Source: Escherichia phage EK8 | Reading direction: 5' to 3' (one strand) | DNA: 64,000 nucleotides | Sequence record: PQ805430.1 | Shown: piece by piece, positions 1 through 40,359 of the stretch | Layout of the letters: the number at the start of each line of letters is the position of its first letter | Numbering within the stretch: position 1 is the stretch's first letter | Made by a program: the position numbers and the translations under genes | Notes under the pieces: model-generated | Databases searched by the model: none | Seen by the model: the letters and a program-made list of their open reading frames with translations, nothing else | What the model was told of the DNA's origin: nothing

Positions 1-79
1 AACGCTTACTCGCACTTGAATCCAAATAATATAAGCCTCTTGGGGGGCTTTTCCATTGAGAATAACAACAGGAGCTACT

Positions 80-2089: not shown

Positions 2090-2289
2090 TTAAAACAACT
2101 GTTTTTCGTGATAAGAATGGAAGCGTAATCAATATTGGCCCATGGAATTACATGGAGATGCCAATGGTGGATGAAGAAAATGGCGAGCTAACGTGGGTAA
2201 TAAATAACCCACTACCGGAAGGGGCAACTTCAAGCGACGAGGACGTCATTCCTGATGGGCATGGGGGATTTATGGCTGTGAACCCCTAA
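2086..2289 (+). CDS. hypothetical acidic protein (67 aa)
   Basis: ATGA stop/start overlap with upstream gene; no motif recognised. Confidence 0.4.
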   Translation: MIKTTVFRDKNGSVINIGPWNYMEMPMVDEENGELTWVINNPLPEGATSSDEDVIPDGHGGFMAVNP

Positions 2290-2412
2290 TAGTCATCCTC
2301 AGCATCTTTTGACGCTGACCACATGATGACAGCAATGAGCACTATGACGGCAGGGATGCCGATTATCAACAGTGCTGTAAACATATGCGATTCCTTTTTA
2401 ATTGGAGGTTTT

Positions 2413-2889
2413 ATGCAACTTACTAATAATGAGCGAGCGTTTCTAAAAATGCTGACTGTTTCTGAAGGAACCAGTACCAGTAAATACACCAAAAATAACG
2501 GTTATGATGTAATCGTTAATGGTATTGGTGGTGAACCGAAGACCTTTACTGACTACAGCAAGCACCCCAATGTGCTGGTCACTGTAAACAACAAAGGTCT
2601 TAAGTCTACCGCTGCTGGGGCATATCAGATTCTTTATAAATACTGGGTTGCCTACAAAAAGCAGCTTGGACTTAAAGGATTCTATCCCGAAGATCAGGAT
2701 GCAATTGCAATGCAATTGATCAAAGAATGTAAGGCCCGTGACGACATTAACGCTGGTCGTATTGAGGCTGCTATCACTAAGTGTCGCTCCCGCTGGGCAT
2801 CTCTGCCTGGTGCAGGCTACGGCCAGTTTGAGCACAAGATGGATACTCTGGTTTCAGCGTATAAAAAAGCTGGGGGTACTGTAGCGTGA
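2413..2889 (+). CDS. endolysin, lambda R-type lytic transglycosylase
   Basis: 158-aa product from ATG 2413 (GGAGG upstream); blocks GYDVIV, KQLGLK, WASLPGAGYGQFEHK, KKAGGTV match lambda R as recalled. Confidence 0.85.
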   Translation: MQLTNNERAFLKMLTVSEGTSTSKYTKNNGYDVIVNGIGGEPKTFTDYSKHPNVLVTVNNKGLKSTAAGAYQILYKYWVAYKKQLGLKGFYPEDQDAIAMQLIKECKARDDINAGRIEAAITKCRSRWASLPGAGYGQFEHKMDTLVSAYKKAGGTVA

Positions 2890-3122
2890 AGCTGCGACTG
2901 GTACAAAACTGGCGATCAGCATGGAAGTGGTACTCAGTCCACATCATGATTGTAATCGTCGCTTTGCCAGAGATCTGGAGCTATTTTCCGCAGGAGTTCA
3001 AAGACTCCCTGCCTCCAGGTGCGTTGAAGTACGCCATGATGTTCCTGGGCGTATCAGCGATTCTGGCTCGCTTGTTCTCTCAGGAGAAGTCCAAAGATGA
3101 TGAACCTGATAAAGACGTATAA
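2886..3122 (+). CDS. putative holin
   Basis: 78 aa, two hydrophobic helices (YSVHIMIVIVALPEIW; ALKYAMMFLGVSAILARLF), charged C-terminus EKSKDDEPDKDV; start overlaps endolysin stop; sits between endolysin and spanins. Confidence 0.5.
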   Translation: MKLRLVQNWRSAWKWYSVHIMIVIVALPEIWSYFPQEFKDSLPPGALKYAMMFLGVSAILARLFSQEKSKDDEPDKDV

Positions 3123-3594
3123 GGTCTATATCGGTTTAGTCCTGGCCCTGGTTATAATAGCCGGGGCTTGTTGGCTAACGTGGACTGTCACGGATTCACG
3201 GTGGCAGTCGAAATATGATTCATTGGAAACACAGTATGCTGATGCTTCCGCAAAGGCCCAGAATGAAGCCAGGGCAAAGGAGTTGGAATATGACCTCAAT
3301 ATCTCTAAAGCCAATGCTGAGGGGGCTAAACGGGAAGCTGAGGCTAATACTGCTGCCGCTGATGCTAATGCTTCTGTTGTCCGGTTGCACCAACGACTCA
3401 ATACGCTACTTGCCAACACCAGCACCGAAACGACCGGCACTGGACTCAAGGGCAGAACCCCCAACGAAACCATCGTTCTGCTTACCAACGTGTTCCAAAA
3501 ATCTGTCGAACGAAATAGACAACTGGCTGAGTTCGCGGATAAAAGCTGGAACGCAGCTAAACAGTGTTATGACAGCTACAATTCGACACGATAA
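3097..3594 (+). CDS. i-spanin (Rz-like)
   Basis: N-terminal TM helix (IGLVLALVIIAGACWL) followed by Ala/Glu/Lys-rich helical periplasmic domain; carries an out-of-frame lipoprotein ORF. Confidence 0.7.
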   Translation: MMNLIKTYKVYIGLVLALVIIAGACWLTWTVTDSRWQSKYDSLETQYADASAKAQNEARAKELEYDLNISKANAEGAKREAEANTAAADANASVVRLHQRLNTLLANTSTETTGTGLKGRTPNETIVLLTNVFQKSVERNRQLAEFADKSWNAAKQCYDSYNSTR

Positions 3595-3616
3595 TTACGC
3601 TAATTATGTTGTTTAA
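3314..3616 (+). CDS. o-spanin (Rz1-like lipoprotein), overlapped with i-spanin gene
   Basis: ATG 3314 gives MLRGLNGKLRLILLPLMLMLLLSG-C: signal peptide with lipobox LSGC; Pro-rich mature part; starts inside Rz-like gene in another frame and ends 22 nt past it. Confidence 0.6.
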   Translation: MLRGLNGKLRLILLPLMLMLLLSGCTNDSIRYLPTPAPKRPALDSRAEPPTKPSFCLPTCSKNLSNEIDNWLSSRIKAGTQLNSVMTATIRHDNYANYVV

Positions 3617-3678
3617 ATTTTAATTAGTATTAAAATAAGACAGAGTTAACTTAACTATCTCTATAGAGGTTTAAATTT

Positions 3679-4134
3679 ATGGCTAATAAAGGTGTTTATA
3701 AAAAACCGGCACCTATCGGTTCTGGTGTAGTAACCACTGATGACGTTATCGCTCAGGGTTACGATTTCGTTTACCTGAAAATGGGCGGTATGCTCAAAGT
3801 TCAGGAAGCAACCGTTGAAGGCGATCTGACTATCAAAGGCGATACTGCCTATGAGCCTCCGGTTCCCCTGAGTCTGTCCACTGACCTGGCTGCAACTAAA
3901 TCTGTTGCTACCGGTGCCCAGTTGACTCTGACCGTTGCTGCTGCAAACGGCTTTGGTGATTACAGCTACCAGTGGTACAAAGACGGTGCTCCGATCTCTG
4001 GCCGTACTGGTGCGTCATTCTCCAAATCTTCTGCGGAAGCTGGCGATGCAGGTGATTATTACTGCGTGGCGACGGATAAGATGGGTGACACTGTTACCTC
4101 TAAAACTTGTAAAGTTACCGTTACTACTGCGTAA
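3679..4134 (+). CDS. Ig-like domain virion protein (possible capsid decoration protein)
   Basis: 151 aa; C-terminal YQWYKDG...GDAGDYYCVATD...KVTV resembles an Ig (I-set/BIG2-like) domain; AGAGG RBS. Confidence 0.55.
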   Translation: MANKGVYKKPAPIGSGVVTTDDVIAQGYDFVYLKMGGMLKVQEATVEGDLTIKGDTAYEPPVPLSLSTDLAATKSVATGAQLTLTVAAANGFGDYSYQWYKDGAPISGRTGASFSKSSAEAGDAGDYYCVATDKMGDTVTSKTCKVTVTTA

Positions 4135-4848: not shown

Positions 4849-5655
4849 TCACTTTAATACGGCGATGATGTCGTTTACGGTTTCACGACTATCGGATTTG
4901 GCACTGATTGCCCGGCGAGCAGGTAGCTCAGTGATAGTAAAGCCAGATGACTCGTATAGGTCAATGATTCTTGGTGCCGAACTGTTTGTGATGACAGTCG
5001 GTACACCTTTCTTCCTGGCTTCCAGTGCCATAGTTACTAATCGCTTTTGGTCACCAAAACCGAAAGTCTTACCAGAATAAGTGGTAAAGCCTTTCTTGCC
5101 AGGCAGCGGTTCATACGGAGGATCGCAGAAGATAACATCACCTTCCTGGGCTAATGCCATATGGGTAGCGAAGTCCACGCAGAACGTCTTAGGCCGCAGG
5201 CCAGCGTTAACGTACTCTTCCAGTTCAGCACGCGGGAAGTAAGGCTGAGCCTTCTTGCCCCACGGCACATTGAACAGGCGATCATTGTTGTAACGGCAGA
5301 GGCCGTTAAAGCAGGTACGGTTAATGACCAGGAAGAACGCTGCCTGTGAGTAGGCTGAATAGCCCTCACTGTTCAGGCGATCCTGGACACGGTAATAATT
5401 CTCTTCCGAGTCCACCCACTTACAAAGCTGTTCAGCTTCGTTGATCAGTCGGTGGCCTTGATGGTTGAGGACGTTGTACAGATTGATGAGATCCGGGTTC
5501 ACGTCATTGATGAGGTTCTCTTCAAAACCAGCATTCATGAATACGGAACCGGCCCCAACAAAGGGTTCAATCAGGCGCTTACCTTTGGGAAGGTGGTGCA
5601 GAATTACAGGCAGTTGGCTATGTTTGCCACCCGCCCATTTCAGGAAGGGTTTCAT
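4849..5655 (-). CDS. dam: DNA adenine methyltransferase (Dam family, GATC-type)
   Basis: N-terminal FLKWAGGK...EPFVGAGSVF (AdoMet binding) and catalytic DPPY motif. Confidence 0.9.
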   Translation of the reverse strand: MKPFLKWAGGKHSQLPVILHHLPKGKRLIEPFVGAGSVFMNAGFEENLINDVNPDLINLYNVLNHQGHRLINEAEQLCKWVDSEENYYRVQDRLNSEGYSAYSQAAFFLVINRTCFNGLCRYNNDRLFNVPWGKKAQPYFPRAELEEYVNAGLRPKTFCVDFATHMALAQEGDVIFCDPPYEPLPGKKGFTTYSGKTFGFGDQKRLVTMALEARKKGVPTVITNSSAPRIIDLYESSGFTITELPARRAISAKSDSRETVNDIIAVLK

Positions 5656-5664
5656 AGATACCTC

Positions 5665-5688
5665 AATAAAAAAGCCCCTTACGGGGCT
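5665..5688 (-). terminator. rho-independent terminator (minus strand)
   Basis: AGCCCC-TTAC-GGGGCT hairpin with A-run on plus strand = U-run for minus transcripts. Confidence 0.55.
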
Positions 5689-6011
5689 GGTGGTGGTTTG
5701 GGTTTACCTAACTTTATACTGATGGCCAGTTCGGATAGCTGGAAAAATCTTCCCCCAAAGTGGGCACAAATTGCCACAAAGATGGGCAGGGTAACCCCTT
5801 TGGGCAAAGACTCTTTGTACTCAGGATAGGCTCCAGATGCCAGGTATCCGGCAAGCAGGCACGCAAGAAATTCGCAAAGCACCCACAAAACTGACGGGTC
5901 AGTTTCTCGCATAAATCTACGACCGACAGAGATAAAGCCACTCATCGCAGAGATGATCAGTACCCCAAACAAATCCCAGTATTGCTGATTTGGTTGGTTA
6001 TCTGGTGGCAT
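5679..6011 (-). CDS. hypothetical membrane protein
   Basis: multiple hydrophobic segments; Pro-rich C-terminus; start uncertain. Confidence 0.4.
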   Translation of the reverse strand: MPPDNQPNQQYWDLFGVLIISAMSGFISVGRRFMRETDPSVLWVLCEFLACLLAGYLASGAYPEYKESLPKGVTLPIFVAICAHFGGRFFQLSELAISIKLGKPKPPPAP

Positions 6012-6069
6012 ACCTACTCCAGGGTTAAAGATAGATGCTAAGAATTTTACATATATTTTGAGATAATAC

Positions 6070-6417
6070 CTAACCCTTACTGACGTTATGCTTGTTAGCT
6101 AACGCATTACGTAAACCTTTACTCATCTTAGCGTCATCATGGCCTTTAAATTCAAGATCCATAAAGATAAGATTAAAGCCTTTAACATTTACCTTAAGTT
6201 CACGTAAGTAGATGGGGCTATCTAAGGTTTCTTGATAAAAAGTTAAATCCTGATCATCCAGCTCTAACTTACCCATTACATACTTATCGTAGCCTTCTGC
6301 TATTTTCTGCTTATTGTAGGTAGGCGGGCTGATAGAAACTTGATCTCCTTCATCGCCATTATCACAAAAGAATCTGGCAGTAAGGAAAACACTAAGTTTA
6401 ATTTTTACTTCTGCCAT
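6070..6417 (-). CDS. hypothetical protein
   Basis: start moved to internal ATG 6417 to avoid 95-nt overlap with upstream gene. Confidence 0.4.
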   Translation of the reverse strand: MAEVKIKLSVFLTARFFCDNGDEGDQVSISPPTYNKQKIAEGYDKYVMGKLELDDQDLTFYQETLDSPIYLRELKVNVKGFNLIFMDLEFKGHDDAKMSKGLRNALANKHNVSKG

Positions 6418-6424
6418 ACTGATC

Positions 6425-6892
6425 TCACTTAAACGTGATGTGGTGCGGAATGAACTGCACCGAACGGTTGAACTGGAAACGTTCACAAAGCTGTTTGAGA
6501 GCAGGGAGATCGTCATCAAACATGTGAACTTCTACCGGGCCGGAATAAACCAGAAGGTTATACACCGTGGAGATTTTCCACTCTTTGGTTTTGCGGTTAT
6601 CGTCTGCACTACGCATATGATAACGGGCATCCGGGAAGCCGGAGTTTTTCAGGTAGATATGGGTGTCCTGCATGACGCTTTCGTCGCGGTTCGAGACAAC
6701 ACCAATTTCATAACCGGCACCGGCCATACAAGCGGCAGTGCGGATAAGACTCAGGTTGAGGCGCTCCATACGGAATGCCTTATGCCAACCCAACCAGGCT
6801 GCATTGTTGTTACGGTTTTCGGGGATGAGAGCACTACGAGCACTACTCGTATTGATTGTCCCATCCAGGTCGAACAGTGCCAGCTTACGCAT
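6425..6892 (-). CDS. HAD-superfamily phosphatase (possible nucleotidase)
   Basis: N-terminal LALFDLDGTI = HAD motif I (DxDGT). Confidence 0.6.
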   Translation of the reverse strand: MRKLALFDLDGTINTSSARSALIPENRNNNAAWLGWHKAFRMERLNLSLIRTAACMAGAGYEIGVVSNRDESVMQDTHIYLKNSGFPDARYHMRSADDNRKTKEWKISTVYNLLVYSGPVEVHMFDDDLPALKQLCERFQFNRSVQFIPHHITFK

Positions 6893-7084: not shown

Positions 7085-7270
7085 CTAACCGATAAAGTAA
7101 TGTAGGATTTTGGCACCTACACCGAACATAACAGCAGTGGTGACACACGCTGTCAGGATGGCCATGATTACATCGCCAATCGACCATTCATCAAGTGCAT
7201 TGAAGAAAGTGGATACAGCAAAGAACCAGGCTACTGTCCAGTAGATGCCCCACATCATATTTGGATCCAT
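7085..7270 (-). CDS. small membrane protein
   Basis: 61 aa, two hydrophobic helices; immediately downstream of DNA polymerase. Confidence 0.45.
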   Translation of the reverse strand: MDPNMMWGIYWTVAWFFAVSTFFNALDEWSIGDVIMAILTACVTTAVMFGVGAKILHYFIG

Positions 7271-9982
7271 TTATGCTCCTGTCCACGTACCGTGGGCATC
7301 AACGTATTTAACCCAATCCTTCGGCTTCCACTTTGACGTGTCTTCCGCTGGTTTAGGGCATTTATAGGCTCCGGCCTCCGCCCACTTGATTTTGCGACGG
7401 TAGAGCATTTCAGCAGCTACAGCGTCACGGATCTCCTGCTCACTCAGGTTGTTGTCCAGCGTGATAGGCGTAGCCCAGTTCGGCCAATAGAGGTCGAGGT
7501 TGGCGGGCAACGGTACACGAGGGTCAGCAATCTCAGGCAGACCTTTCCAGGCCATTTCTTCGATCAGATGATCATTGGCGAATTTAACCGCTGTAATGTC
7601 TCTGCGAATAAGCAGGTAGATAGCATCGTGGATGAGTGCTACGGGGAGAATGTCATTACGGAAGGGACTTGCCCACACCTTCTGCATAAAAGCGTTTACA
7701 GCTCGGTTGGTGAGCAATCCGTATGACTGACCACTCACTGCGTTGCCGAGGCTCCGGCCTTCGGCCTCTGCCTCGCGCATCGTGCGTGAGCTTCCCATGA
7801 CGGAACGTTTGAGTAATGGTGTACGGATACGGAGGCCAAAGGCTCCGGTGCCATAACCATCCTCGGTTGCTTTCTGGATCTTGCCCTGTACCCACTTGCC
7901 CGATACTTCGTAGAGCTTGTGGAAGTTTTCTTCGATCCGCTGAGCTTCTTCTTTCGAGAAGCCGCAGTTCTTGACCAGGGTAAGCCAGGTGCCCAGATAT
8001 TGCAGAGCAAACGACACGGGCTTGGACTGACCACGCTCAGCTTTAAACTCTTCCTGGATTCGGTTAATCCCCTCAACGGTGTTCGGCAGGTGAGCAAATT
8101 TCTCCGGCCAGTATGCGTAGGTACGCATGGAGTGAGGGTCATACCCGTCCGTAAAGACTTTAATCTTGTTCGGATCCTGGGTGAGCAGAGCATTGATACG
8201 GTCTTCCAGAGCATTGAAGTCAGCCCCGGCAAAGATCCATCCATCGGGTGCCGAGAAGATGTATTTAATCAGCTTACCGAATGTAGAACCGGATGGGAGG
8301 TTTTGCAGGTTAGGATCTGACGAACTCAACCGCCCGGACAACGTACCGCCGAGGTTAAAGCAACCATGCAGATACCAGCGACCGTTACCTTTGTCGAAGC
8401 CAGCTTCAAACGCCGGAATGAACGACGACAAGATTTTGGAAACCTTGTTGTAGTCGATCAGTGCCCGCAGTAGAGCTTTGGCCTCTTCCGTCTTAGCATG
8501 GAACTCCAGCTTATCGATGGTGTCCGATGCAGCCGATGGCTGTTTGGTTTTGGTACGCTCAATCACCGGTAGCTGCATCACATCGTAAAGAAGGATGGCT
8601 ACCTGTTGATTACTGCCTGGGTTGAATTGAATGTGGCTAAAGTGCTCCAGCGGGTGCTGTTTCGTCTTGAGCTTGGCATTCGCAGCAACCATAGTGTTGG
8701 TCTGAATGATCTTCTCAGCCTGCTTCACGAAGCGGGTGCCACGCATTAACTGAATAGCGGCATTGAGGCCAGCCTCCAGCTTCTGTCTGGCTTCCTTGAT
8801 CTTCTCCGGTATCATTGGCATACCGGTAAGTTCGATTTGCAGGATGGTTTTCAACGACGGCAGGAATTGCTCTTTGTACAGCTTAAGCTGCCCATCCCGT
8901 ACCATGATCGGATAATACTTCTCCTTCACGTACATCGTTGACATGGTGTCAATGACGTTGTACTGGAGCAGTTCCGGCAACGGGATCGCCATGATGTTGT
9001 TGATATCGTCTTTGGCCCAGTTCCCGGCGAACTCGTGAGCCAGGGTTTTCAAGCCCAGTTCATTACCCGCAGTGGAGTTGGTAGCCAGATACGCGATGAG
9101 CTTGGTATCGTCGATGTTCTTGGTTAGGACTTCCAGACCTTCCAACAACCCGGCATTATCCAGAGGATCTGCCATATACAGGTTGTAGATGAGCACCTTG
9201 ATATCGTACCCGCCGTGGTGATAAACAACCTTACCGTTGTACGCTTCGAAGAACTTTTTCAGCTTATGGCGGAAGTAAGGATCGAAGATCCTGACGTTCT
9301 CTCCATTCTGCTGTATCAGGTCACAACGCATCCCGATACCACCAGTGGTATCTTTACTGAATGAGATCGTGCCGATACCGGCTTTAAACGGGTGCAGACT
9401 GAAAGTCTCAAGGTCAACTGCGACCTCATCCCACTTCATGATTTCGGCAAATGCCTTATCAATCTCACTGTCCGTTATCGGATAGTAAGCCCATTTCAGA
9501 ATGTCGTTACCCAGTGCCTCATACGTCCCTTTGAGGCTGGAAGCCAGGGTCTTAATGGATAAGTCCAGCTTTTCAGACACTGCCGGGTTATACGTCAGAG
9601 CCTGATAGTTGATGCCCAGGGTTACCTGGATATCTTCGTAGCCGGGGATTGCACACGGGAGCATGTAGCCTAATTGAGCCTCAGCCTTCGTATTCTTGGT
9701 CAAGACCTTGAAGTAGTTGGAGTCGGCACAATACACATGCTTGGTTTGCAGTTTCTTTAATGCTGGGAGTAGCTGTTCGAGGTACTTCTTGATATGCCCG
9801 ACAGGTGCTTTGTTATTGGGCTGATAGTCCAGCGTGAATACCACTAAATTCTCAGCTTTATAACCACTATCTTCCAGGGGATCAACATAGAAACGTTTTA
9901 TCTCAGATGGCTGCAATGCTGCCTCTTTGATAAGGATCGCCGTTTCATACGTTGGCCTGGTGGCATAAATGATGTGTCTCAT
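7271..9982 (-). CDS. DNA polymerase, family A, with 3'-5' exonuclease domain
   Basis: Exo motif VAVDLETFSL; pol motif A DFNALEDR; motif B RGQSKPVSFALQYLG; motif C LIHDAIYLL. Confidence 0.9.
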   Translation of the reverse strand: MRHIIYATRPTYETAILIKEAALQPSEIKRFYVDPLEDSGYKAENLVVFTLDYQPNNKAPVGHIKKYLEQLLPALKKLQTKHVYCADSNYFKVLTKNTKAEAQLGYMLPCAIPGYEDIQVTLGINYQALTYNPAVSEKLDLSIKTLASSLKGTYEALGNDILKWAYYPITDSEIDKAFAEIMKWDEVAVDLETFSLHPFKAGIGTISFSKDTTGGIGMRCDLIQQNGENVRIFDPYFRHKLKKFFEAYNGKVVYHHGGYDIKVLIYNLYMADPLDNAGLLEGLEVLTKNIDDTKLIAYLATNSTAGNELGLKTLAHEFAGNWAKDDINNIMAIPLPELLQYNVIDTMSTMYVKEKYYPIMVRDGQLKLYKEQFLPSLKTILQIELTGMPMIPEKIKEARQKLEAGLNAAIQLMRGTRFVKQAEKIIQTNTMVAANAKLKTKQHPLEHFSHIQFNPGSNQQVAILLYDVMQLPVIERTKTKQPSAASDTIDKLEFHAKTEEAKALLRALIDYNKVSKILSSFIPAFEAGFDKGNGRWYLHGCFNLGGTLSGRLSSSDPNLQNLPSGSTFGKLIKYIFSAPDGWIFAGADFNALEDRINALLTQDPNKIKVFTDGYDPHSMRTYAYWPEKFAHLPNTVEGINRIQEEFKAERGQSKPVSFALQYLGTWLTLVKNCGFSKEEAQRIEENFHKLYEVSGKWVQGKIQKATEDGYGTGAFGLRIRTPLLKRSVMGSSRTMREAEAEGRSLGNAVSGQSYGLLTNRAVNAFMQKVWASPFRNDILPVALIHDAIYLLIRRDITAVKFANDHLIEEMAWKGLPEIADPRVPLPANLDLYWPNWATPITLDNNLSEQEIRDAVAAEMLYRRKIKWAEAGAYKCPKPAEDTSKWKPKDWVKYVDAHGTWTGA

Positions 9983-34418: not shown

Positions 34419-34506
34419 AAAATTTTCCTCATAAAATTTTTAAAAATTGCCCAACCTTTCGACCCTATTTATACTCTGGCTTAGAACCTATAGGGAGACT
34501 ATATCA

Positions 34507-35193
34507 ATGGCATTGCTCGATTTAAATACACTCAAAGCTGCGTTGCCTGACAACATCCGTAAGACTATCACTGATGAAGTGTTGAATGGGATTAACGCTG
34601 CTGTGGCTGACCCCCAGTTTTACGAGTATTACCGTAACAACCTGTTGAGCTATGGCCATGTGCTGAAAGAAGGGAAGTTTACGGTTAAGCAGTACAGTGC
34701 AGCAGTCCGGTATGTGTCGTATAAGCTGATGGGCTTAACGAACCAGGAAGCGTGGATGAAGACCTTCCCGGACAAGTATGCGTACTTCGCTCAGAAGGGC
34801 ACCAGTGCAAAAGACATTTCAAGTTACGTCCATGCGTACCATAATACTAAACTGGTAAACCTGGTAATGGAGCAGTCGCTTGTTCCTGTGCATGTGGTAG
34901 GCCGTGACCTGTTCTGGAAAGCTCTCAACGTTCAGGCTGAGTTAATGGTCAGTGCTACCAGTGAAAAGGTACGCAGCGATGCTGCGAACAGCGTACTGAA
35001 CACGTTGCGCCCGCCTGAGACTAAGAAGATGGAACTGGATATCAACCACAAGGACGATGGTACGCTGGAGGCGTTGCGTGCTGCTACGCAGGCTCTGGTA
35101 GACCAGCAATCGAATGCGATTGCTAGTGGGACAGTAACAGCAGGGCAGGTGGCCGCGTACCGTGTCATTGAAGCGGAGAAACTCGATGAGTAA
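34507..35193 (+). CDS. hypothetical protein, possible terminase small subunit (position only)
   Basis: ATG 34507 with GGGAG RBS (track start 34447 is TTG); first gene of rightward late unit, upstream of terminase large subunit. Confidence 0.35.
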   Translation: MALLDLNTLKAALPDNIRKTITDEVLNGINAAVADPQFYEYYRNNLLSYGHVLKEGKFTVKQYSAAVRYVSYKLMGLTNQEAWMKTFPDKYAYFAQKGTSAKDISSYVHAYHNTKLVNLVMEQSLVPVHVVGRDLFWKALNVQAELMVSATSEKVRSDAANSVLNTLRPPETKKMELDINHKDDGTLEALRAATQALVDQQSNAIASGTVTAGQVAAYRVIEAEKLDE

Positions 35194-35356: not shown

Positions 35357-35496
35357 TTACCTTATGGCCCGATTTCAAAGATCAATCCCTGGCTTTCAAC
35401 GAAGAAGAAGGTAAGTGGGAATTTAATAGCCGCCTCTACAGACGTAGGGGCCAGGCCGAAAAAGCAGCCTGGAAAGCATGGAATAAGATGCGATGA
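35353..35496 (+). CDS. small hypothetical protein (47 aa)
   Basis: hand-translated MITLWPDFKDQSLAFNEEEGKWEF...; stop overlaps terminase ATG (ATGA). Confidence 0.3.
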   Translation: MITLWPDFKDQSLAFNEEEGKWEFNSRLYRRRGQAEKAAWKAWNKMR

Positions 35497-37106
35497 AAGA
35501 CCTGGTAATGGGAGAACAGATCACCGCCCGCACCGTGGATAGCTGGTTGGCAGACGTTGACTATAACGACGATCCGACTTACCAGCCGTCCCGGTTCGCG
35601 CTGGAATTTGTGCTGTTCATCAAGATGGTGAACGGCGGGCAGGGGGAGGAAAACAAATCCCCCGTCCTGCACTACAAAATGTTGGATCAGGTTGTGTCCG
35701 GCGATACCCGTATCGCCAACATGATTCACCGTGGTGCCGCTAAGACGACCATCATGGGTGAATACCTGTTCCTGTATATCGGCGTTTATGGGGAGATCCC
35801 CGGCTTCGGTAAAATTGAACTGGCCTTGTACGTGTCGGACTCCATCGATAACGGCGTGAAGAACATGCGTAAGAACCTGGAGTTCCGCTATGAGAACAGC
35901 CCGTTCTTGCAGCAGTACATCCCGGTAGCGAAGTTCACTGATATCCGCTGGGAGTTCCAGAACGTCGATGGTAATAAGTTCGTGGTCAAGGGCTACGGTG
36001 CGAAGACCGGCGTTCGTGGTACGAAAGAAATGGGTAAACGTCCCCGTCTGGCGGTACTCGATGACCTGGTTTCGGATGAGGACGCACGTTCTCCGACTGT
36101 TATCGCGGCCATCGAAGATACCATCTACAAGGCAGTGGAATACGCCCTCCACCCTGAACGTAACATGATGATCTGGTCGGGTACGCCGTTTAACGCATCC
36201 GATCCACTGTACAAAGCAGTCGAGTCCGGTGCCTGGTCGGTTAACGTCTACCCGGTGTGCGAGCGTTTCCCCTGCACGAAAGAAGATTTCCGGGGTAGCT
36301 GGCCTGACCGTTTCCCGTATGAGTACGTCAAACGCCAGTACGATAAGGCGTTACAGGCCGGAATGATTTCGATGTTTAACCAGGAGCTTATGCTTCGCAT
36401 TATGTCCGACGAGGATCGCCTGATCGCAGATGGTGATATTCGTTGGTACAAAATCGACCTGGTTAAAAATAACCCGACCAACTTCAACTTCTACATCACC
36501 ACTGACTTTGCGACCGGCGAGAAGCAGGCGAATGACTTCTCGGTTATCTCCGTGTGGGCTTATAACAACAACGGTGACTGGTTCTGGGTAGACGGGATCT
36601 GTAAACGACAGGATATGGCCAAGAACATTGATGACCTCTTCCGGCTCAATGCAAAATACAGGCCAATCTCCGTGGGTGTTGAAGTCTCCGGGCAACAGCA
36701 GGGCTTTATCTCAATCATCCAGGAGCGTATGGGCCGAACCAACAACTGGTTCACTCTGGCTTCAAACGAGAACTCAAACCAGCCTGGTATCAGGCCGAAT
36801 ACGAACAAGCTGCAACGCTTTAACGTAGTCGTGCCCTGGTTTAAGGCCGGTAAGATGTATTTCCCGATTGAGCACAAACATGAAGCCCCGCTCATGGAAA
36901 TGATGGATGAACTTAAGCTGGCCTCAGTCGGAGGGTTTAAGTCCAAGCACGATGACGCCGTTGATACCATCTCCATGCTCGCCAGCATGAAACCGTTCAA
37001 GCCGAGCGAAGAAAGCACGCAGACAACCTGGGAGGATGGTAATATTTGGGATCAGAAAGTTGATGATGGTTGGGGCGATAGTGGCCTTAACTCCTACCTA
37101 CCGTGA
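35493..37106 (+). CDS. terminase large subunit
   Basis: Walker A-like HRGAAKTT; Walker B LAVLDDLVSDE; nuclease-domain block ITTDFATGEKQANDFSVISVWAY. Confidence 0.85.
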   Translation: MKDLVMGEQITARTVDSWLADVDYNDDPTYQPSRFALEFVLFIKMVNGGQGEENKSPVLHYKMLDQVVSGDTRIANMIHRGAAKTTIMGEYLFLYIGVYGEIPGFGKIELALYVSDSIDNGVKNMRKNLEFRYENSPFLQQYIPVAKFTDIRWEFQNVDGNKFVVKGYGAKTGVRGTKEMGKRPRLAVLDDLVSDEDARSPTVIAAIEDTIYKAVEYALHPERNMMIWSGTPFNASDPLYKAVESGAWSVNVYPVCERFPCTKEDFRGSWPDRFPYEYVKRQYDKALQAGMISMFNQELMLRIMSDEDRLIADGDIRWYKIDLVKNNPTNFNFYITTDFATGEKQANDFSVISVWAYNNNGDWFWVDGICKRQDMAKNIDDLFRLNAKYRPISVGVEVSGQQQGFISIIQERMGRTNNWFTLASNENSNQPGIRPNTNKLQRFNVVVPWFKAGKMYFPIEHKHEAPLMEMMDELKLASVGGFKSKHDDAVDTISMLASMKPFKPSEESTQTTWEDGNIWDQKVDDGWGDSGLNSYLP

Positions 37107-37114
37107 GGTGAGGC

Positions 37115-38023
37115 ATGAAATTAAGACTGTCCGACGTATTGGATAACCTTCTGGTCGGAGAGTTCGCACAAACAGGCTGGGCACAAGATGGTGAGTTTTC
37201 CGTAGCGACGGTGAACAAGATTATCATCCTGCTCAATGCTGCATTGGGCGATATCTCTTCTCGGTTCTGGATTAAGAGGAAAGAAGTCTTCCTCCAGACC
37301 TGCCGGGGCCAGACGCTGTACGTGATCGATAACTCGGTCGCAAGTGCCCAGATGAAATTGCAGGGTGGCAACTGTAATTTAACCACCAGCACTGGTGAAG
37401 TCTGGGAAGATGATCTCCAGCAGATCTATGAAGTCTATGACTGCAACGGGAATGAGATGCCTCTCGCGCACGACGTAGGTTCGCCGCACGCCAGTGCAAG
37501 GCGAACCTGCAAGTGCGGGGCACCGATTAGCCCGGAAGAACTGGATGAGATGTGTTACAAATGCCGTAACGCCCGGTTCAGTAAAACCGTGGATAAACCA
37601 GGTACGATTGTTACCCGGCACCATCCGTTTGGTGTACCGAACATTCGTCCGGGCGACTCGTGCTCTATCCAGCTTGCAGCGTATAACACGATCCGTGTAC
37701 CGGATAACCTGACTCCGCAGAAACTGCGTGTCGTGTACCGGGCAACGGCGAAGCGTGTTAAGAAAATTGAAAACAACGGTGTCCCATATGACCCAACTCG
37801 AATTTTTATTGATGTGCCTTACGAGTATCTCCAGGCGATTCTTTTTTATATTGCTTCTCGTAAGTTCAACTCTAATAAATCCGGGGTACAGGGTGGGATG
37901 CACGAAGGGAACAACTACTACCAAAAATACATTGCAGCCTGTACACTACTGCAAGACCAGGGAGCCGGTGTCGAACCGGTAGGGAACTCAGGAAGTAAGT
38001 TCGAACAGAACGGATTTGTATAA
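37115..38023 (+). CDS. hypothetical virion/packaging-associated protein
   Basis: 302 aa; CKCGAPISPEELDEMCYKCRN Cys motif; start 9 nt after terminase stop. Confidence 0.45.
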   Translation: MKLRLSDVLDNLLVGEFAQTGWAQDGEFSVATVNKIIILLNAALGDISSRFWIKRKEVFLQTCRGQTLYVIDNSVASAQMKLQGGNCNLTTSTGEVWEDDLQQIYEVYDCNGNEMPLAHDVGSPHASARRTCKCGAPISPEELDEMCYKCRNARFSKTVDKPGTIVTRHHPFGVPNIRPGDSCSIQLAAYNTIRVPDNLTPQKLRVVYRATAKRVKKIENNGVPYDPTRIFIDVPYEYLQAILFYIASRKFNSNKSGVQGGMHEGNNYYQKYIAACTLLQDQGAGVEPVGNSGSKFEQNGFV

Positions 38024-38045
38024 TAAAAAGCCCCTCATTGAGGGG
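38014..38045. terminator. bidirectional terminator between convergent genes
   Basis: AAAAA-GCCCCTC-ATT-GAGGGGC-TTAATTATTT. Confidence 0.6.
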
Positions 38046-38054
38046 CTTAATTAT

Positions 38055-38501
38055 TTAAATGCTACAGGCACCGCTTTCACACTTGTTGTTCTCAGCAAAC
38101 TCAGCCAGTGCAGCTTTGGTCTGAATTTCTTCAAACAGACGCTGTTTCAGGCGATAACCTTCCACCAGCCAGATCTTCTCAATGGCGTTTTCACGGGCAA
38201 CATCGCAGCCAATGGAGAAGTTAAAGTTCTCCGGGCTGGCGCAGGCAGAATGACCAATCACGGTGAAGCCGTTTTCCAGAGTCAGTACGCAGATGGTCAC
38301 CAGCTTATGGGACTCCAGCGTTTCCTGGGTGGTATCCGGGGAATCACTGTTCTGGTTTGCACCGGAGATACCTTCGGCAGCGGTGAAGAAGACTTCGGAT
38401 TTAATCAGGGACTTGATGTAATCCGGGGTAAGACGCGGAGCTTTATCGGCACCAGCAGCAACAATTTTCTGTTCGAGATCAGACATTGGGTTTCTCTTCA
38501 T
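38055..38501 (-). CDS. hypothetical protein (island gene)
   Basis: 148-aa ORF on reverse strand inside late module; alternative start 38486. Confidence 0.45.
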   Translation of the reverse strand: MKRNPMSDLEQKIVAAGADKAPRLTPDYIKSLIKSEVFFTAAEGISGANQNSDSPDTTQETLESHKLVTICVLTLENGFTVIGHSACASPENFNFSIGCDVARENAIEKIWLVEGYRLKQRLFEEIQTKAALAEFAENNKCESGACSI

Positions 38502-38596
38502 AGAGTGGTTTCATGGAATAGCCGAACATGACTGCATTGTCATACTCGACACTGTTGGCAAATACCAGGTACTTCTTGCCACGGCGATCCGTGACT

Positions 38597-38782
38597 TCAT
38601 AAGCATAAGGTATCGGCATAATTTGTACCTTTTCTTACCCGTGAGAGTATACGTCTGCACATGGATTTAGTGATCGGGGAGCTATGCTCAAAGAACATTA
38701 GCTTATTACACATTGTTACCACAGCGAGACAGAATACTCCCTGCTCATCTGGTTTAGTCCGGTAATAACGTTTAATTTTCAT
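38597..38782 (-). CDS. hypothetical small protein (61 aa)
   Basis: start moved to internal ATG 38782 (AAGGA RBS) because the longer track ORF runs through a terminator hairpin. Confidence 0.35.
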   Translation of the reverse strand: MKIKRYYRTKPDEQGVFCLAVVTMCNKLMFFEHSSPITKSMCRRILSRVRKGTNYADTLCL

Positions 38783-38795
38783 AGGTATCCTTAAT

Positions 38796-38820
38796 GGAAA
38801 AAGCCCCTCCAAAGAGGGGC
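38796..38820 (-). terminator. rho-independent terminator (minus strand)
   Basis: GCCCCTC-CAAA-GAGGGGC hairpin with A-run on plus side. Confidence 0.55.
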
Positions 38821-38920
38821 TATTCCAGGCTTGCAGGTGCATAGGCGCTTTTATATTCCCTATGCGGATAACCTTGTCGGGTATTTCCAACCATTACGCA
38901 CCAGGCGTAACGACGGGAAC

Positions 38921-39166
38921 TTATAAGCCAGCCTTGATAACTTCCAACTGGCTTTTCATCATCACCCAGAATACGGCTGGTATCTTCTCGTAACCGAGGT
39001 TTATAAACATGTCACGTATCTGAATGTTATGAATACGTTTGGCTATAAGCAGACTACAACATCTGAGCTTATCGTCAACGGGTTCGTTATACTTTTTTGC
39101 CATAGCAATACAGAGATCTACCGTATCCACGGCATCAAGAAACTCATCAATAGGATCGGGGAACAT
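38921..39166 (-). CDS. hypothetical protein
   Basis: 81-aa ORF upstream of tRNA pair. Confidence 0.45.
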   Translation of the reverse strand: MFPDPIDEFLDAVDTVDLCIAMAKKYNEPVDDKLRCCSLLIAKRIHNIQIRDMFINLGYEKIPAVFWVMMKSQLEVIKAGL

Positions 39167-39198
39167 GATTGTTACTCTGGTTTAGGGAGGGTATGAAT

Positions 39199-39274
39199 TG
39201 GATGGGGTATCTGGATTCGAACCAGAGAATGCCGATATCAAAGACCGGTGCCGTAACCACTTGGCTATACCCCA
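39199..39274 (-). tRNA. tRNA-Gln (anticodon UUG)
   Basis: hand-folded cloverleaf: acceptor TGGGGTA/TACCCCA, anticodon loop CTTTGAT, T-arm CTGGTTCGAATCCAG, encoded CCA; close to E. coli tRNA-Gln as recalled. Confidence 0.8.
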
Positions 39275-39279
39275 GAAGG

Positions 39280-39355
39280 TGGCGATGGGATGGAGATTCG
39301 AACTCCAATGTCGCGGATTAACAGTCCGGTGCTTTACCGAGTTAGCTATCCCATC
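39280..39355 (-). tRNA. tRNA-Asn (anticodon GUU)
   Basis: hand-folded: acceptor GATGGGA/TCCCATC, anticodon loop CTGTTAA, T-arm TGGAGTTCGAATCTCCA, discriminator G and encoded CCA; 5-nt spacer to tRNA-Gln. Confidence 0.8.
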
Positions 39356-39464
39356 TTATTAATTAAGACACTCTGTTACCTGCCGATCCATGTGGCTGCA
39401 TGGAATGATAACACACTGAGATTAGGGTATGAGCCTGTTCAATGTTGAGTGTCCTAATTAATAA
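39356..39464. repeat. 18-bp inverted repeat (17/18) enclosing a 73-nt spacer, abutting tRNA-Asn
   Basis: TTATTAATTAAGACACTC (39356-39373) vs complement GAGTGTCCTAATTAATAA (39447-39464). Confidence 0.5.
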
Positions 39465-39745
39465 GCCCCCTGTAAAGCCGGGGGGGCAACTCCGAGTTCG
39501 GTAATCTGGTTCTGGTTCCAGAGCACTCCAGGTATTAAGCCTTTGTGCAGGGACGGGTCACTGCCCGTATTATCAAATCGTATTCCCAAAGTAGAACATG
39601 GTTCTTAGTCGCTGGCGTCACCGGTGCTTCTAAGCATCAACACACTCGTAAGTATGTTCAGGTTTAAAAGCTCCCCCATCGCTGAGGGAGAAAATTGATA
39701 ATGCAGGTGGTGTAAGTTAAGTATTACCGCACCCGCAGCCAGATA

Positions 39746-40294
39746 TCAAGCCTGGTTTGGAAGAAGTTGAGAAAAATCTGGTTCGGTGAAAGTCACCATG
39801 TTTTTCAGGAACTTCCCTTCCGGGTAGAATTTACCGTTCAGTTTGATATCACGCTTAACCTTAATGCACATAGTCGGGTAGTTACCGTGCAGATACAGGT
39901 CGTCAGGCTGGAAGCCCAGATCATAGTAATAAGCCAGGGCTTTAATCTTGTCGCCTTCGCTGCTAATGAACTTAGACATGTTAGATTCATGCACCAGGTC
40001 ATAGCAGGAGTTACCATCGAAACCAGCCACATGAGCTACTCCGTCGTTAACGGTGGTCAGGTCACCCTGTGCATCCAGGATACCGGGCATATCGATACTG
40101 GTTTCATCCGTATCGCCATTCAGATCCCAGACTACCTTCATACCAGGGTGTGCAGCTTCGACCATTTCGATAGCTTCCTCTAAACAAAGCATTGCCTGTT
40201 TACGGATAGCCTTAACGTTAGGGTTGTTCAGATCGCCTTTCGCGTTACCAAATGCTAAATTAAGTGCAGTAACTTTTTCGAAAGTAGTTTTCAT
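39746..40294 (-). CDS. possible MazG/HisE-like nucleotide pyrophosphohydrolase
   Basis: 182 aa; helical Glu-rich LCLEEAIEMVEA resembles EExxE metal-binding motif. Confidence 0.4.
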   Translation of the reverse strand: MKTTFEKVTALNLAFGNAKGDLNNPNVKAIRKQAMLCLEEAIEMVEAAHPGMKVVWDLNGDTDETSIDMPGILDAQGDLTTVNDGVAHVAGFDGNSCYDLVHESNMSKFISSEGDKIKALAYYYDLGFQPDDLYLHGNYPTMCIKVKRDIKLNGKFYPEGKFLKNMVTFTEPDFSQLLPNQA

Positions 40295-40359
40295 GAAAGG
40301 TTTCCTTTCTCTTTAAATTGACAATAATGGGTGAAATTATTCACCAGAGCAGAGGACAT

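Follow-up and report, generated by a model that had tools for sequence, protein, structure and literature searches.

Introduction

In phage N4 the interval from the portal gene (gp59) to gp67 is filled by an Rz spanin gene (gp60), an endolysin gene (gp61), a holin gene (gp62), gp63, gp64, a sheath gene (gp65) and an appendage gene (gp66), all on the late strand. In the Cbunavirus phages CB1, CB3 and CB4 the same slot holds a reversed block of genes led by a MazG-like gene, which has been partly described (Buttimer et al., 2018; PMC6027278). Early and middle transcripts of LUZ7 and LIT1 arise almost exclusively on the strand opposite the structural genes and extend through the late region, with the late strand transcribed afterwards (PMC9163698). 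Here we analyze this slot in Escherichia phage EK8 (sequence record PQ805430.1), using a stretch of 64,000 nucleotides, hereafter the window, that covers all but ~11 kb of the genome; in it a 2.2-kb block of minus-strand genes (38055-40294) lies between a gp67-like virion gene and the portal gene, both of which are on the plus strand.

Judged by DNA identity, the phage is N4-like (Schitoviridae) and belongs to Cbunavirus or stands close to it: a 24-kb query from the window aligned over 72-79% of its length, at ~83% identity, with the Pectobacterium Cbunavirus phages CB1, CB3, CB4, phiA41, Nepra, and Possum, and over 73%, at 80.6% identity, with Kosakonia phage Kc283. We read the block as a conserved, reverse-oriented accessory module of the N4-like group that probably combines replication support with counter-defense (probability roughly 0.7). 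The block is already annotated in GenBank ("MazG-like pyrophosphatase", tRNAs); new here are the assignment of one gene to the Acb4 family, the equivalence of the slot with that of a Migulavirinae dUTPase, the fast-changing tRNA array together with a swappable cassette, and a candidate structured RNA.

Conservation of the Reversed Module

The original prediction, made from the letters alone, had described a minus-strand block with its own terminators in an interval that holds tail and lysis genes in N4, and had read it as a lineage-specific insertion. The observation was accurate: the minus-strand open reading frames (ORFs) begin and end exactly at 38055 and 40294 in the ORF listing, amid plus-strand genes, four hairpin terminators belong to the block, and the N4 record carries the expected tail and lysis genes. 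The lineage-specific reading, however, failed a simple synteny check. A reversed block led by the MazG-like gene occupies the same slot in Kc283, CB1, CB4, phiA41, and Possum (Cbunavirus), in FBKp27, P19-618, and MIF8 (Efbeekayvirus-type), in Enterobacter phage SABI, and in more than 25 metagenomic contigs, counted for slot and orientation where both flanks were present. Occurrence of the same block in all relatives had been set beforehand as the outcome that would tell against a lineage-specific insertion, and this is what the comparison returned, with none of the Cbunavirus, Efbeekayvirus, and SABI-like relatives examined lacking the block in that slot; the block is therefore a clade-level rather than a genome-specific feature.

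Beyond these relatives the slot is filled differently. KP8, JWAlpha, and phiEaP8 have a lysis cassette before the portal gene, as in N4, and DSS3phi2 has small same-strand ORFs between portal and gp67. LUZ7 gp83 and DEV gp81 (Migulavirinae) are reversed PF00692 dUTPases (E about 1e-24) located between the portal and gp67-like genes. Relative to N4, the block is a replacement of the lysis/tail interval, but one that other genomes share. In EK8, genes for the tailspike, endolysin, and spanin were found at 56-3594 on the plus strand, away from the portal slot; the tailspike/lysis cluster sits about 34-36 kb from the portal region within the window, and N4 keeps these functions between portal and gp67.

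A recent insertion specific to this genome would fit the slightly lower G+C content of the block (0.46-0.47, compared with about 0.50 in the flanks) and the lack of the block in N4, KP8, JWAlpha, phiEaP8, and DSS3phi2. It is nevertheless highly improbable, given the same-slot block in every close or moderately distant relative examined and a window-unique part of only ~170 bp (about 38616-38786); the synteny comparison rules out a genome-specific insertion (moron). As a separate observation, Enterobacter phage SonariX (PQ898399.1; 248,734 bp) carries at about 174-189 kb the N4-like late region and the block of the 76-kb SABI, with match statistics that are almost the same, and because a 249-kb N4-like genome is implausible, this record may be a concatenated or mixed assembly.

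The MazG-Like Protein

The 182-aa protein that leads the block is, in its sequence, consistent with an all-alpha (MazG-like) nucleoside triphosphate (NTP) pyrophosphohydrolase, as the original prediction had correctly called it. It matches the phrog_2144 family "MazG-like pyrophosphatase" (E=3.8e-67), and the acidic metal-binding motifs (EExxE ... DxxxD/E; residues E39, E40, E43, D74, and D78) are invariant in 27 homologues at identities down to 53%. Among these aligned homologues, Pfam matches were obtained to PF01503 (7 proteins), PF12643 (3) and PF03819 (1). A profile search of the PDB returned the MazG-like enzyme DR2231 (E=0.005), whose entries are the best solved sequence relatives, and the helical-bundle fold common to solved members of the superfamily was found for this protein as well. 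A beta-rich C-terminal extension (residues ~130-175, GKFYPxGKFLKNM...EPDFS) is also conserved. NCBIfam and PADLOC gave no match, while a large protein search recovered 270 homologues and tblastn found matches in 339 phage records; identity was 55-98% among N4-like relatives and about 50-57% for Ackermannviridae copies. An identical protein is encoded by five contigs assembled from public read sets, three of which are 72-76 kb long.

For this enzyme we favor a role in clearing dUTP or non-canonical deoxynucleoside triphosphates (dNTPs) in support of replication, because a dUTPase fills the slot in LUZ7 and DEV, no canonical dUTPase was found in the window (best tblastn E=0.77), and DR2231 is dUTP-specific. 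Alternatively, rather than house-cleaning, it might hydrolyze (p)ppGpp and so counter the stringent response and toxin-mediated abortive infection, as would an enzyme resembling Atd1, the MazG-like protein of Pectobacterium phage PcCB7V that hydrolyzes ppGpp but not ribonucleoside triphosphates and protects against TIR effectors (bioRxiv 10.1101/2022.06.09.495361). The company of a gene from a family directed against the cyclic oligonucleotide-based antiphage signaling system (CBASS) in the same module would suit this alternative, which we nonetheless consider rather unlikely in view of the canonical dUTPase in the slot of LUZ7 and DEV and of the DR2231 entries as the best solved relatives. 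The tblastn search with the MazG-like protein further reached 14 Pectobacterium records, all of them N4-like and equal in number to those found by DNA searches, in a collection whose inclusion of PcCB7V is unchecked. A cyanophage MazG, reportedly studied by Rihtman et al. in 2019, is also said not to hydrolyze (p)ppGpp, which counts against an alarmone hydrolase.

The Acb4-Family Gene, Small Proteins and Cassette Exchange

At the other end of the block, the 143-aa protein is, by its PF13876 domain, a member of the Acb4 family, with a match of E=1.5e-27 and 96.3 bits (cut-off 27) that covers profile positions 1-82 of 82. The crystal chain of Acb4 from Bacillus phage SPO1, a viral cyclic-dinucleotide sponge (9e4w), matched it at E=5.3e-5, and 4 of the 10 ligand contacts of SPO1 Acb4 are conserved (F48, F62, N63, and I66). 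The Acb4 family corresponds to PF13876, with 1,331 members, and purified homologues, apparently not including this protein, bound 3'3'-cGAMP in 8 of 8 cases (bioRxiv 10.1101/2024.12.30.630793). An ATG farther upstream, at 38501, would lengthen the ORF; a start at 38486 is preferred, since 143 aa are called in near-identical contigs. The nucleotide signaling that the original prediction had suspected thus stands by way of the Acb4-family gene, which it had listed merely as a small protein, but not demonstrably by way of MazG.

The PF13876 family closes the block in CB4, Kc283, SABI, P19-618, and FBKp27. In the Klebsiella relatives P19-618 and FBKp27 the PF13876 gene is followed by a different last gene after the tRNAs, coding in P19-618 for 158 aa with an RyR domain (8028-8504 of its locus; PF02026, E=5.7e-11) and in FBKp27 for 139 aa with no Pfam match, so that the end of the module is a variable accessory slot. 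N4 also appears, from domain matches, to carry two side-by-side candidate immune-signal sponges: gp48 (5633-6004 of the N4 locus) matches PF13876 at E=8.8e-35, and gp49 (6004-6486) is Tad2-like (PF11195, E=8e-24). The two genes are adjacent and are the last of the early/middle strand (plus in the N4 record), converging on the virion RNA polymerase gene.

Within the window the stem AGCCCCTC/GAGGGGCT occurs only twice, at 38028-38048 and 38802-38821, and these two hairpins bracket the 46-aa and Acb4-family genes. Among contigs whose MazG-like protein is identical, the stretch bounded by this pair of hairpins holds in some the same 143-aa Acb4 allele and in others one of 124 aa. Breakpoints relative to related contigs (L096-L099) fall at 38848, 38787, and 38615, the first two flanking the 38802-38821 hairpin. 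The two same-stem hairpins look like joints, and appear from these alignments to serve in exchange of the Acb4 cassette.

Of four small proteins listed by the original prediction, three are supported genes; the fourth is a doubtful ORF whose 61-aa version has no PHROG, Pfam, NCBIfam, or PADLOC match and no tblastn match in any related locus. It lies in the segment at about 38616-38786 that is absent from 99%-identical relatives. The longer, 97-aa version of this ORF, with a TTG start in place of ATG, was rejected as a gene because the terminator hairpin 38802-38821 lies inside it. The conserved 44/46-aa protein shows tblastn identities of 65-98% in 11 related loci (44 aa in contigs L096 and L097) and has no Pfam, NCBIfam, PADLOC, or PDB match. 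The DUF7740 protein matches PF24886 just above its cut-off (E=1.3e-6; 28.9 bits vs. 28) and phrog_6022 at E=4.2e-29; it is 92-100% identical in 12 related loci and 31-32% identical in four others, including Kc283 and Possum, and searches of the PDB and the literature returned nothing for it.

A Candidate Structured RNA in the Spacer

The 390-bp stretch from the MazG-like stop codon to tRNA-Asn, which current annotation treats as empty spacer, can be aligned across genera, and we propose that it holds a conserved structured RNA-like element: a candidate ~130-nt core in a ~220-nt unit of six helices, one of which is its own terminator. Across at least two genera the core keeps about 80% nucleotide identity, even where, as in Klebsiella phages, the MazG-like protein has diverged to 55% identity, and the sole ORF in the element is broken by indels of 1 and 5 nt among relatives. 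RNAalifold found 35 pairs in the spacer alignment, of which 9 show compensatory changes. When the alignment was made without fitting to structure, a 25-pair model had 93.1% of its cells paired, compared with 25-57% for slid partners, and 8 pairs changed on both sides against 4.3 ± 1.2 in shuffles; none of 500 shuffles reached the observed pairing values. With 37 copies (29 distinct), 10 of the 25 pairs were changed on both sides, 93% of cells were paired as opposed to 26-57% with slid partners, and again no shuffle among 500 equaled the observed values. Compensatory changes above controls were thus found together with no conserved reading frame, in sequences that fall in few clades, with MIF8 and L111 as the only two divergent copies, and that also supplied the structure.

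Individual helices behave in the same manner. Hairpin A folds in 13 of 13 sequence variants, using three different stems; because the covariance model left a one-base register shift of this hairpin in Klebsiella-type sequences, which was not repaired, the covariation tables undercount it. In the 5' hairpin, RNAalifold recorded pair 22/39 as UA in 10 sequences and CG in 8, and pair 21/40 as AU in 16 and GC in 2, and the window sequence also forms this hairpin (39639-39658) in its minimum-free-energy fold, with a folding z-score of -2.3. The hairpins at ~39671-39690 and 39465-39487 vary by compensatory changes among relatives; at the former the stem sequence differs and pairing is kept in Kc283, CB4, SABI, and P19-618, and the FBKp27 record has a terminator annotated at the same place, after the MazG-like gene.

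The covariance model (R1) scored 137.4 bits at 39448-39584 and recovered a single copy from each of 37 related loci (93-151 bits), with none below E=0.01 in the corresponding regions of N4, LUZ7, DEV, JWAlpha, phiEaP8, KP8, and DSS3phi2. No Rfam 15 family matched 39448-39670 at E <= 1 (2.6 kb searched on both strands), nor did Rfam at that threshold reveal any known RNA, or the remnant of a tRNA, within the 390-bp spacer. An origin of the element in the host was unsupported: no exact copy of a 24-base core pattern turned up in 185,579 bacterial and archaeal species genomes, and blastn with an 11-base word found nothing in 5,426 E. coli genomes. MIF8 retains the MazG-like gene and the element and has neither tRNAs nor downstream genes. 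By these comparisons the element is a candidate new RNA family and the only part of the block that is apparently undescribed.

The spacer might instead be conserved as DNA, for example because it serves the portal operon as a plus-strand late promoter or activator site, or because it serves recombination. Some promoter beyond the 38028-38048 terminator is needed for the portal operon, the FBKp27 record has a late-direction promoter that overlaps the terminator hairpin of the element, and the AT-rich tail TTATTAATT resembles a -10 box on the other strand. We regard this as improbable, since five helices stay paired through changes on both sides, the excess of G-U over A-C cells (57 vs. 15) favors a minus-sense transcript and fits the folding of that transcript only, the terminator stem in MIF8 is rebuilt from different sequence, and a better conserved promoter-like stretch adjoins the portal gene.

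Because no consensus promoter precedes tRNA-Asn, the tRNAs probably come from transcripts that cross the element, which would then be a leader of the tRNA precursor. We tentatively suggest, at somewhat short of even odds, that the spacer encodes a phage-specific structured RNA, either a regulatory or decoy RNA acting in trans or a cis leader that sets read-through into the tRNA/anti-defense cassette, and that the interval with the MazG-like enzyme, tRNAs, and Acb4 forms a counter-defense island opposite the late genes. Between the element terminator and tRNA-Asn, alignments revealed a ~70-nt insertion that is present in the window, SABI, FBKp27, CB1, and phiA41 and absent in Kc283, CB4, and P19-618, a pattern that cuts across genera. 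Its hairpin has changed in sequence with pairing kept (CCATG...CATGG in the window, CAACCT...AGGTTG in SABI).

The tRNA Array

ARAGORN found two tRNAs in the 64-kb window, Gln(ttg) and Asn(gtt), and both tRNAs named in the original prediction were accepted by ARAGORN and by Rfam, where the gathering score of RF00005 is 29. They form a minimal Asn and Gln array with a 5-nt gap. Among 35 related loci with enough sequence the array ranges from 0 to 7 tRNAs, usually with Asn first, with Gln, or Gln then Ser(GGA), last, and with middle members drawn from Asp, Pro, Tyr, Ser(UGA), and Ser(GCU); the array is a hotspot of gain and loss. No tRNA was detectable in the CB1, phiA41, and MIF8 blocks or in contig L111, and phiA41 carries an annotated pseudo-tRNA. 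Two allelic forms of tRNA-Asn circulate in the phage group. In Possum, tRNA-Asn (2810-2884 of its locus) has the anticodon ATT instead of GTT, which makes it either a gene in decay or a decoder of an unusual kind.

The Cbunavirus-type tRNA-Gln has U1-A72 and U73, and Klebsiella-phage copies (P19-618 7180-7256 and related locus L090 3719-3795) have U1-G72 and G73. G73 is an identity element for glutaminyl-tRNA synthetase in E. coli, and charging efficiency may differ between the two forms. The tRNA-Gln is also 95-96% identical to that of the unrelated ~175-kb Erwinia phages Cronus (96%) and IT22, a similarity that suggests either the passage of tRNA genes from one phage family to another or a shared source in the host, and that gives a hint of a host resembling Erwinia or Pectobacterium.

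Codon counts bear on what the tRNAs might do. Gln and Asn account for 5.9% and 5.8% of late-gene codons and for 3.8% and 4.2% of early/middle codons, so that late genes are 1.4-1.5 times richer in these residues, and supply of tRNA for the abundant late Asn and Gln residues is plausible from these figures. That the block mainly tunes translation, its tRNAs reading CAA and AAC/AAT codons overused relative to the host and its other genes being passengers, would draw on this enrichment, on two intact tRNAs with encoded CCA, and on the up to seven tRNAs at the same place in related phages. The codon-usage check nonetheless returned no rare-codon signal for the tuning entertained by the original prediction: CAA makes up 31% of late and 27% of early/middle Gln codons, CAG and AAC are preferred, and a rare-codon hypothesis for CAA and AAT is not supported, in figures that describe the phage only. 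With tRNAs undetected in CB1, phiA41, and MIF8, an ATT anticodon in Possum, and the MazG-like gene and RNA element always retained, we consider tuning as the main purpose of the block doubtful.

Replacement of host tRNAs lost to defense nucleases is likewise plausible. As an account of the array, in which phage copies would replace host tRNAs cut by anticodon nucleases or depleted in infection, it would fit a turnover that is fast (0-7 tRNAs) and yet confined to a small, fixed set of Asn, Asp, Tyr, Pro, Ser, and Gln; colicin-E5-type nucleases cut tRNAs with GUN anticodons, a group that includes Asn, Asp, and Tyr. The array also adjoins the anti-CBASS family gene, and the genome encodes a polynucleotide-kinase-like protein (6425-6892, minus strand). 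Against this, no nuclease-resistance feature was identified, the Asn anticodon loop being the standard CUGUUAA, and several relatives have no tRNA; we judge counter-defense by the tRNAs to be possible but unlikely. The kinase-like protein (155 aa) matches the polynucleotide kinase family phrog_415 at E=1.2e-23, and T4 polynucleotide kinase activity repairs tRNA cut by anticodon nuclease, so that, by analogy, it may be relevant to the presence of tRNAs in these phages.

Promoters and Timing

The 65-bp region that separates the block from the portal gene is, by its sequence, the best candidate for divergent promoters. Its length follows from a portal start at 40360, chosen because the portal gene calls of relatives are 745 aa long. 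The region is conserved in Cbunavirus, SABI, and MIF8 and not in the two Klebsiella-type sequences aligned. At 40318-40350, just upstream of the portal ribosome-binding site, a perfect TTGACA is followed by an inverted repeat, GGTGAA(N5-7)TTCACC, which could be a late promoter, an operator or a hairpin in the 5' untranslated region. A possible match to the N4 middle-promoter consensus, ATTTAAAG, lies upstream of the MazG-like gene; we make no claim from it.

The block shares the orientation of the early/middle genes, since the replication genes lie on the minus strand, and the LUZ7 gp83 dUTPase likewise lies on the early/middle strand. By analogy, the block would be expressed before the late genes, a timing that suits a replication-support enzyme, an immune-evasion sponge, and tRNAs for late translation. 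Features of the block and of its surroundings are collected in Table 1.

Table 1. Coordinates of the reversed block, its signals and neighboring genes in the 64-kb window.
Feature	Position	Strand	Match or remark
Bidirectional intrinsic terminator, 9-bp stem AAGCCCCTC/GAGGGGCTT	38028-38048	both	between convergent gp67-like and Acb4-family genes
Acb4-family protein, 143 aa ("N4 Gp49/Sf6 gene 66"), putative cyclic-dinucleotide sponge	38055-38486	-	PF13876
Conserved 44/46-aa protein	38479-38619	-	phrog_34266 E=8.5e-17; stop overlaps Acb4-family start (ATGTCTGA)
Doubtful 61-aa ORF	38597-38782	-	in window-specific segment about 38616-38786
Intrinsic terminator AGCCCCTC-TTTG-GAGGGGCT then TTTTT	38802-38821	-	after DUF7740 gene
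81-aa DUF7740 protein	38921-39166	-	PF24886, phrog_6022
tRNA-Gln(UUG), encoded CCA, U73 discriminator	39199-39274	-	ARAGORN; Rfam RF00005 59.9 bits
tRNA-Asn(GUU), encoded CCA, one of two alleles in phage group	39280-39355	-	ARAGORN; Rfam RF00005 59.9 bits
Variable leader segment directly upstream of tRNA-Asn	39356-39447	-	includes ~70-nt indel polymorphism with own hairpin
Candidate element core: hairpin A, two nested/adjacent helices, small hairpin, terminator hairpin 39465-39487 then UUAUUAAUU	39448-39584	-	
5' part of candidate element: conserved hairpin 39639-39658 (AACAUAC...GUGUGUU), then variable linker	39585-39670	-	
Terminator-like hairpin CUCCC...GGGAG then CUUUU	39671-39690	-	directly 3' of MazG-like gene; read from sequence
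182-aa putative all-alpha (MazG-like) NTP pyrophosphohydrolase, C-terminal beta-rich extension	39746-40294	-	
65-bp divergent intergenic region	40295-40359	.	TTGACAATAATGGGTGAA and GGTGAA...TTCACC palindrome; candidate back-to-back promoters
SU10-type portal	40360 (ORF from 40318) to 42597	+	PF23899 E=5e-152
Tailspike (677 aa), endolysin, Rz-like spanin, Hoc-like Ig-domain protein	56-4134	+	
Methylase, polynucleotide-kinase-like, DNA polymerase, other replication genes	4849-33095	-	
Late genes	34447 to 62316	+	last is 3696-aa virion RNA polymerase
gp69-like protein	34447-35193	+	
Large terminase	35493-37106	+	
302-aa virion protein, N4 gp67-like	37115-38023	+	phrog_2125

Proposed Model and Its Significance

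In the model that we propose, the minus strand would be read through the MazG-like gene, a terminator, a ~220-nt structured RNA ending in a second terminator, tRNA-Asn, tRNA-Gln, the DUF7740 gene, a third terminator, and finally an exchangeable cassette that closes with the Acb4-family gene and then with the bidirectional terminator common to the convergent late operon. The module would be transcribed with the early and middle genes, ahead of the late genes, and its leaky terminators would grade expression along the unit. The pyrophosphohydrolase would clear dUTP or another unwanted nucleotide in support of phage DNA synthesis, a task that falls to the canonical dUTPase at this place in LUZ7 and DEV. 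The structured RNA would be the leader of the tRNA precursor, released by processing or ending at its own hairpin, and the tRNAs would top up decoding for Asn/Gln-rich late proteins. The Acb4-family protein would bind CBASS cyclic dinucleotides so that the abortive-infection effectors of the host stay off, and the two identical-stem hairpins would act as recombination joints for swaps of the Acb4 cassette.

Several points weigh against this model. The 182-aa protein had no match to Pfam MazG (PF03819), PRA-PH (PF01503), or MazG-like (PF12643) at E <= 0.1, and a Foldseek comparison with the PDB returned noise only. Atd1, a different phage MazG-like enzyme, hydrolyzes (p)ppGpp and not NTPs (bioRxiv 10.1101/2022.06.09.495361), and the ~11 kb of genome outside the window could carry a dUTPase. 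In the Acb4-family protein, the ligand contacts E49, Y57, T70, and V56 are replaced by T, A, V, and C, respectively, and the aligned stretch does not reach K36 or K81. CB1, CB3, phiA41, and MIF8 dispense with the tRNAs. Because the RNA sequences fall in few clades, independent covariation events are few, and covariation was tested on the same sequences from which the structure was derived. A scan with the sigma-70 consensus found no match within 40295-40359 or immediately upstream of tRNA-Asn, and in the block as a whole it found only weak 9/12 matches, fewer than in shuffled sequence; timing, promoters, and processing are all inferred for this phage and genus.

If the model holds, one fixed N4-like slot, beside the portal gene and on the early/middle strand, gathers host-manipulation functions: a dUTPase or MazG-like enzyme, a fast-changing tRNA array, and sponges against nucleotide-based immunity. 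The Acb4-family assignment would offer a testable reason why some therapeutic-candidate phages of Pectobacterium, Klebsiella, and Enterobacter may escape CBASS. Of all parts of the block, the RNA element most merits follow-up.

Comparison with Known Systems

The closest counterpart is the block of the other Cbunavirus phages (CB1, CB3, CB4, and Kc283), in which slot, orientation, and gene order are identical, the MazG-like protein is 79-85% identical and the DNA about 83%; CB4 has the same pair of Asn and Gln tRNAs. The window differs as a separate species-level lineage, with a different tRNA-Asn allele and the unique ~170-bp segment. Its 143-aa Acb4 allele is common to Kc283 (77% identical), whereas the CB-type allele has 130 aa and is 46% identical. 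The published description of the Cbunavirus block (PMC6027278) mentions neither the Acb4 family nor the RNA element.

Among all-alpha NTP pyrophosphohydrolases (MazG, PRA-PH, DR2231, dimeric dUTPases, and the structural-genomics entry 3nl9), the MazG-like protein is set apart by having no direct Pfam match and by its conserved C-terminal extension. The Acb4-family protein resembles SPO1 Acb4 (9e4w) in its full-length PF13876 match, in the alignment of core strands, and in the conserved F48, F62, N63, and I66, and differs from it in length (143 aa vs. 97), in N- and C-terminal extensions, in an internal insert, and in the replacement of E49, Y57, and T70.

The pairing of a phage tRNA array with a structured, non-tRNA non-coding RNA of 100-200 nt, proposed here from sequence alone, has parallels. 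The T4 tRNA cluster includes two small stable RNAs (species 1 and 2, RNA C and D). An N4-like precedent is provided by the late small RNAs of LUZ7 (PMC9163698). Neither has a sequence or Rfam relationship to the element described here, and the LUZ7 small-RNA locus was rejected as an equivalent of this slot because the LUZ7 portal gene is gp82 and the locus lies between orf69 and orf70.

Finally, the Migulavirinae LUZ7 and DEV carry no tRNAs, RNA element, or PF13876 gene in the slot, and their gp83 and gp81 are trimeric-type PF00692 dUTPases with a fold unrelated to that of the MazG-like enzyme. What they share with EK8 is the arrangement itself: the same slot, the reversed orientation, and a nucleotide pyrophosphatase that adjoins the portal gene.

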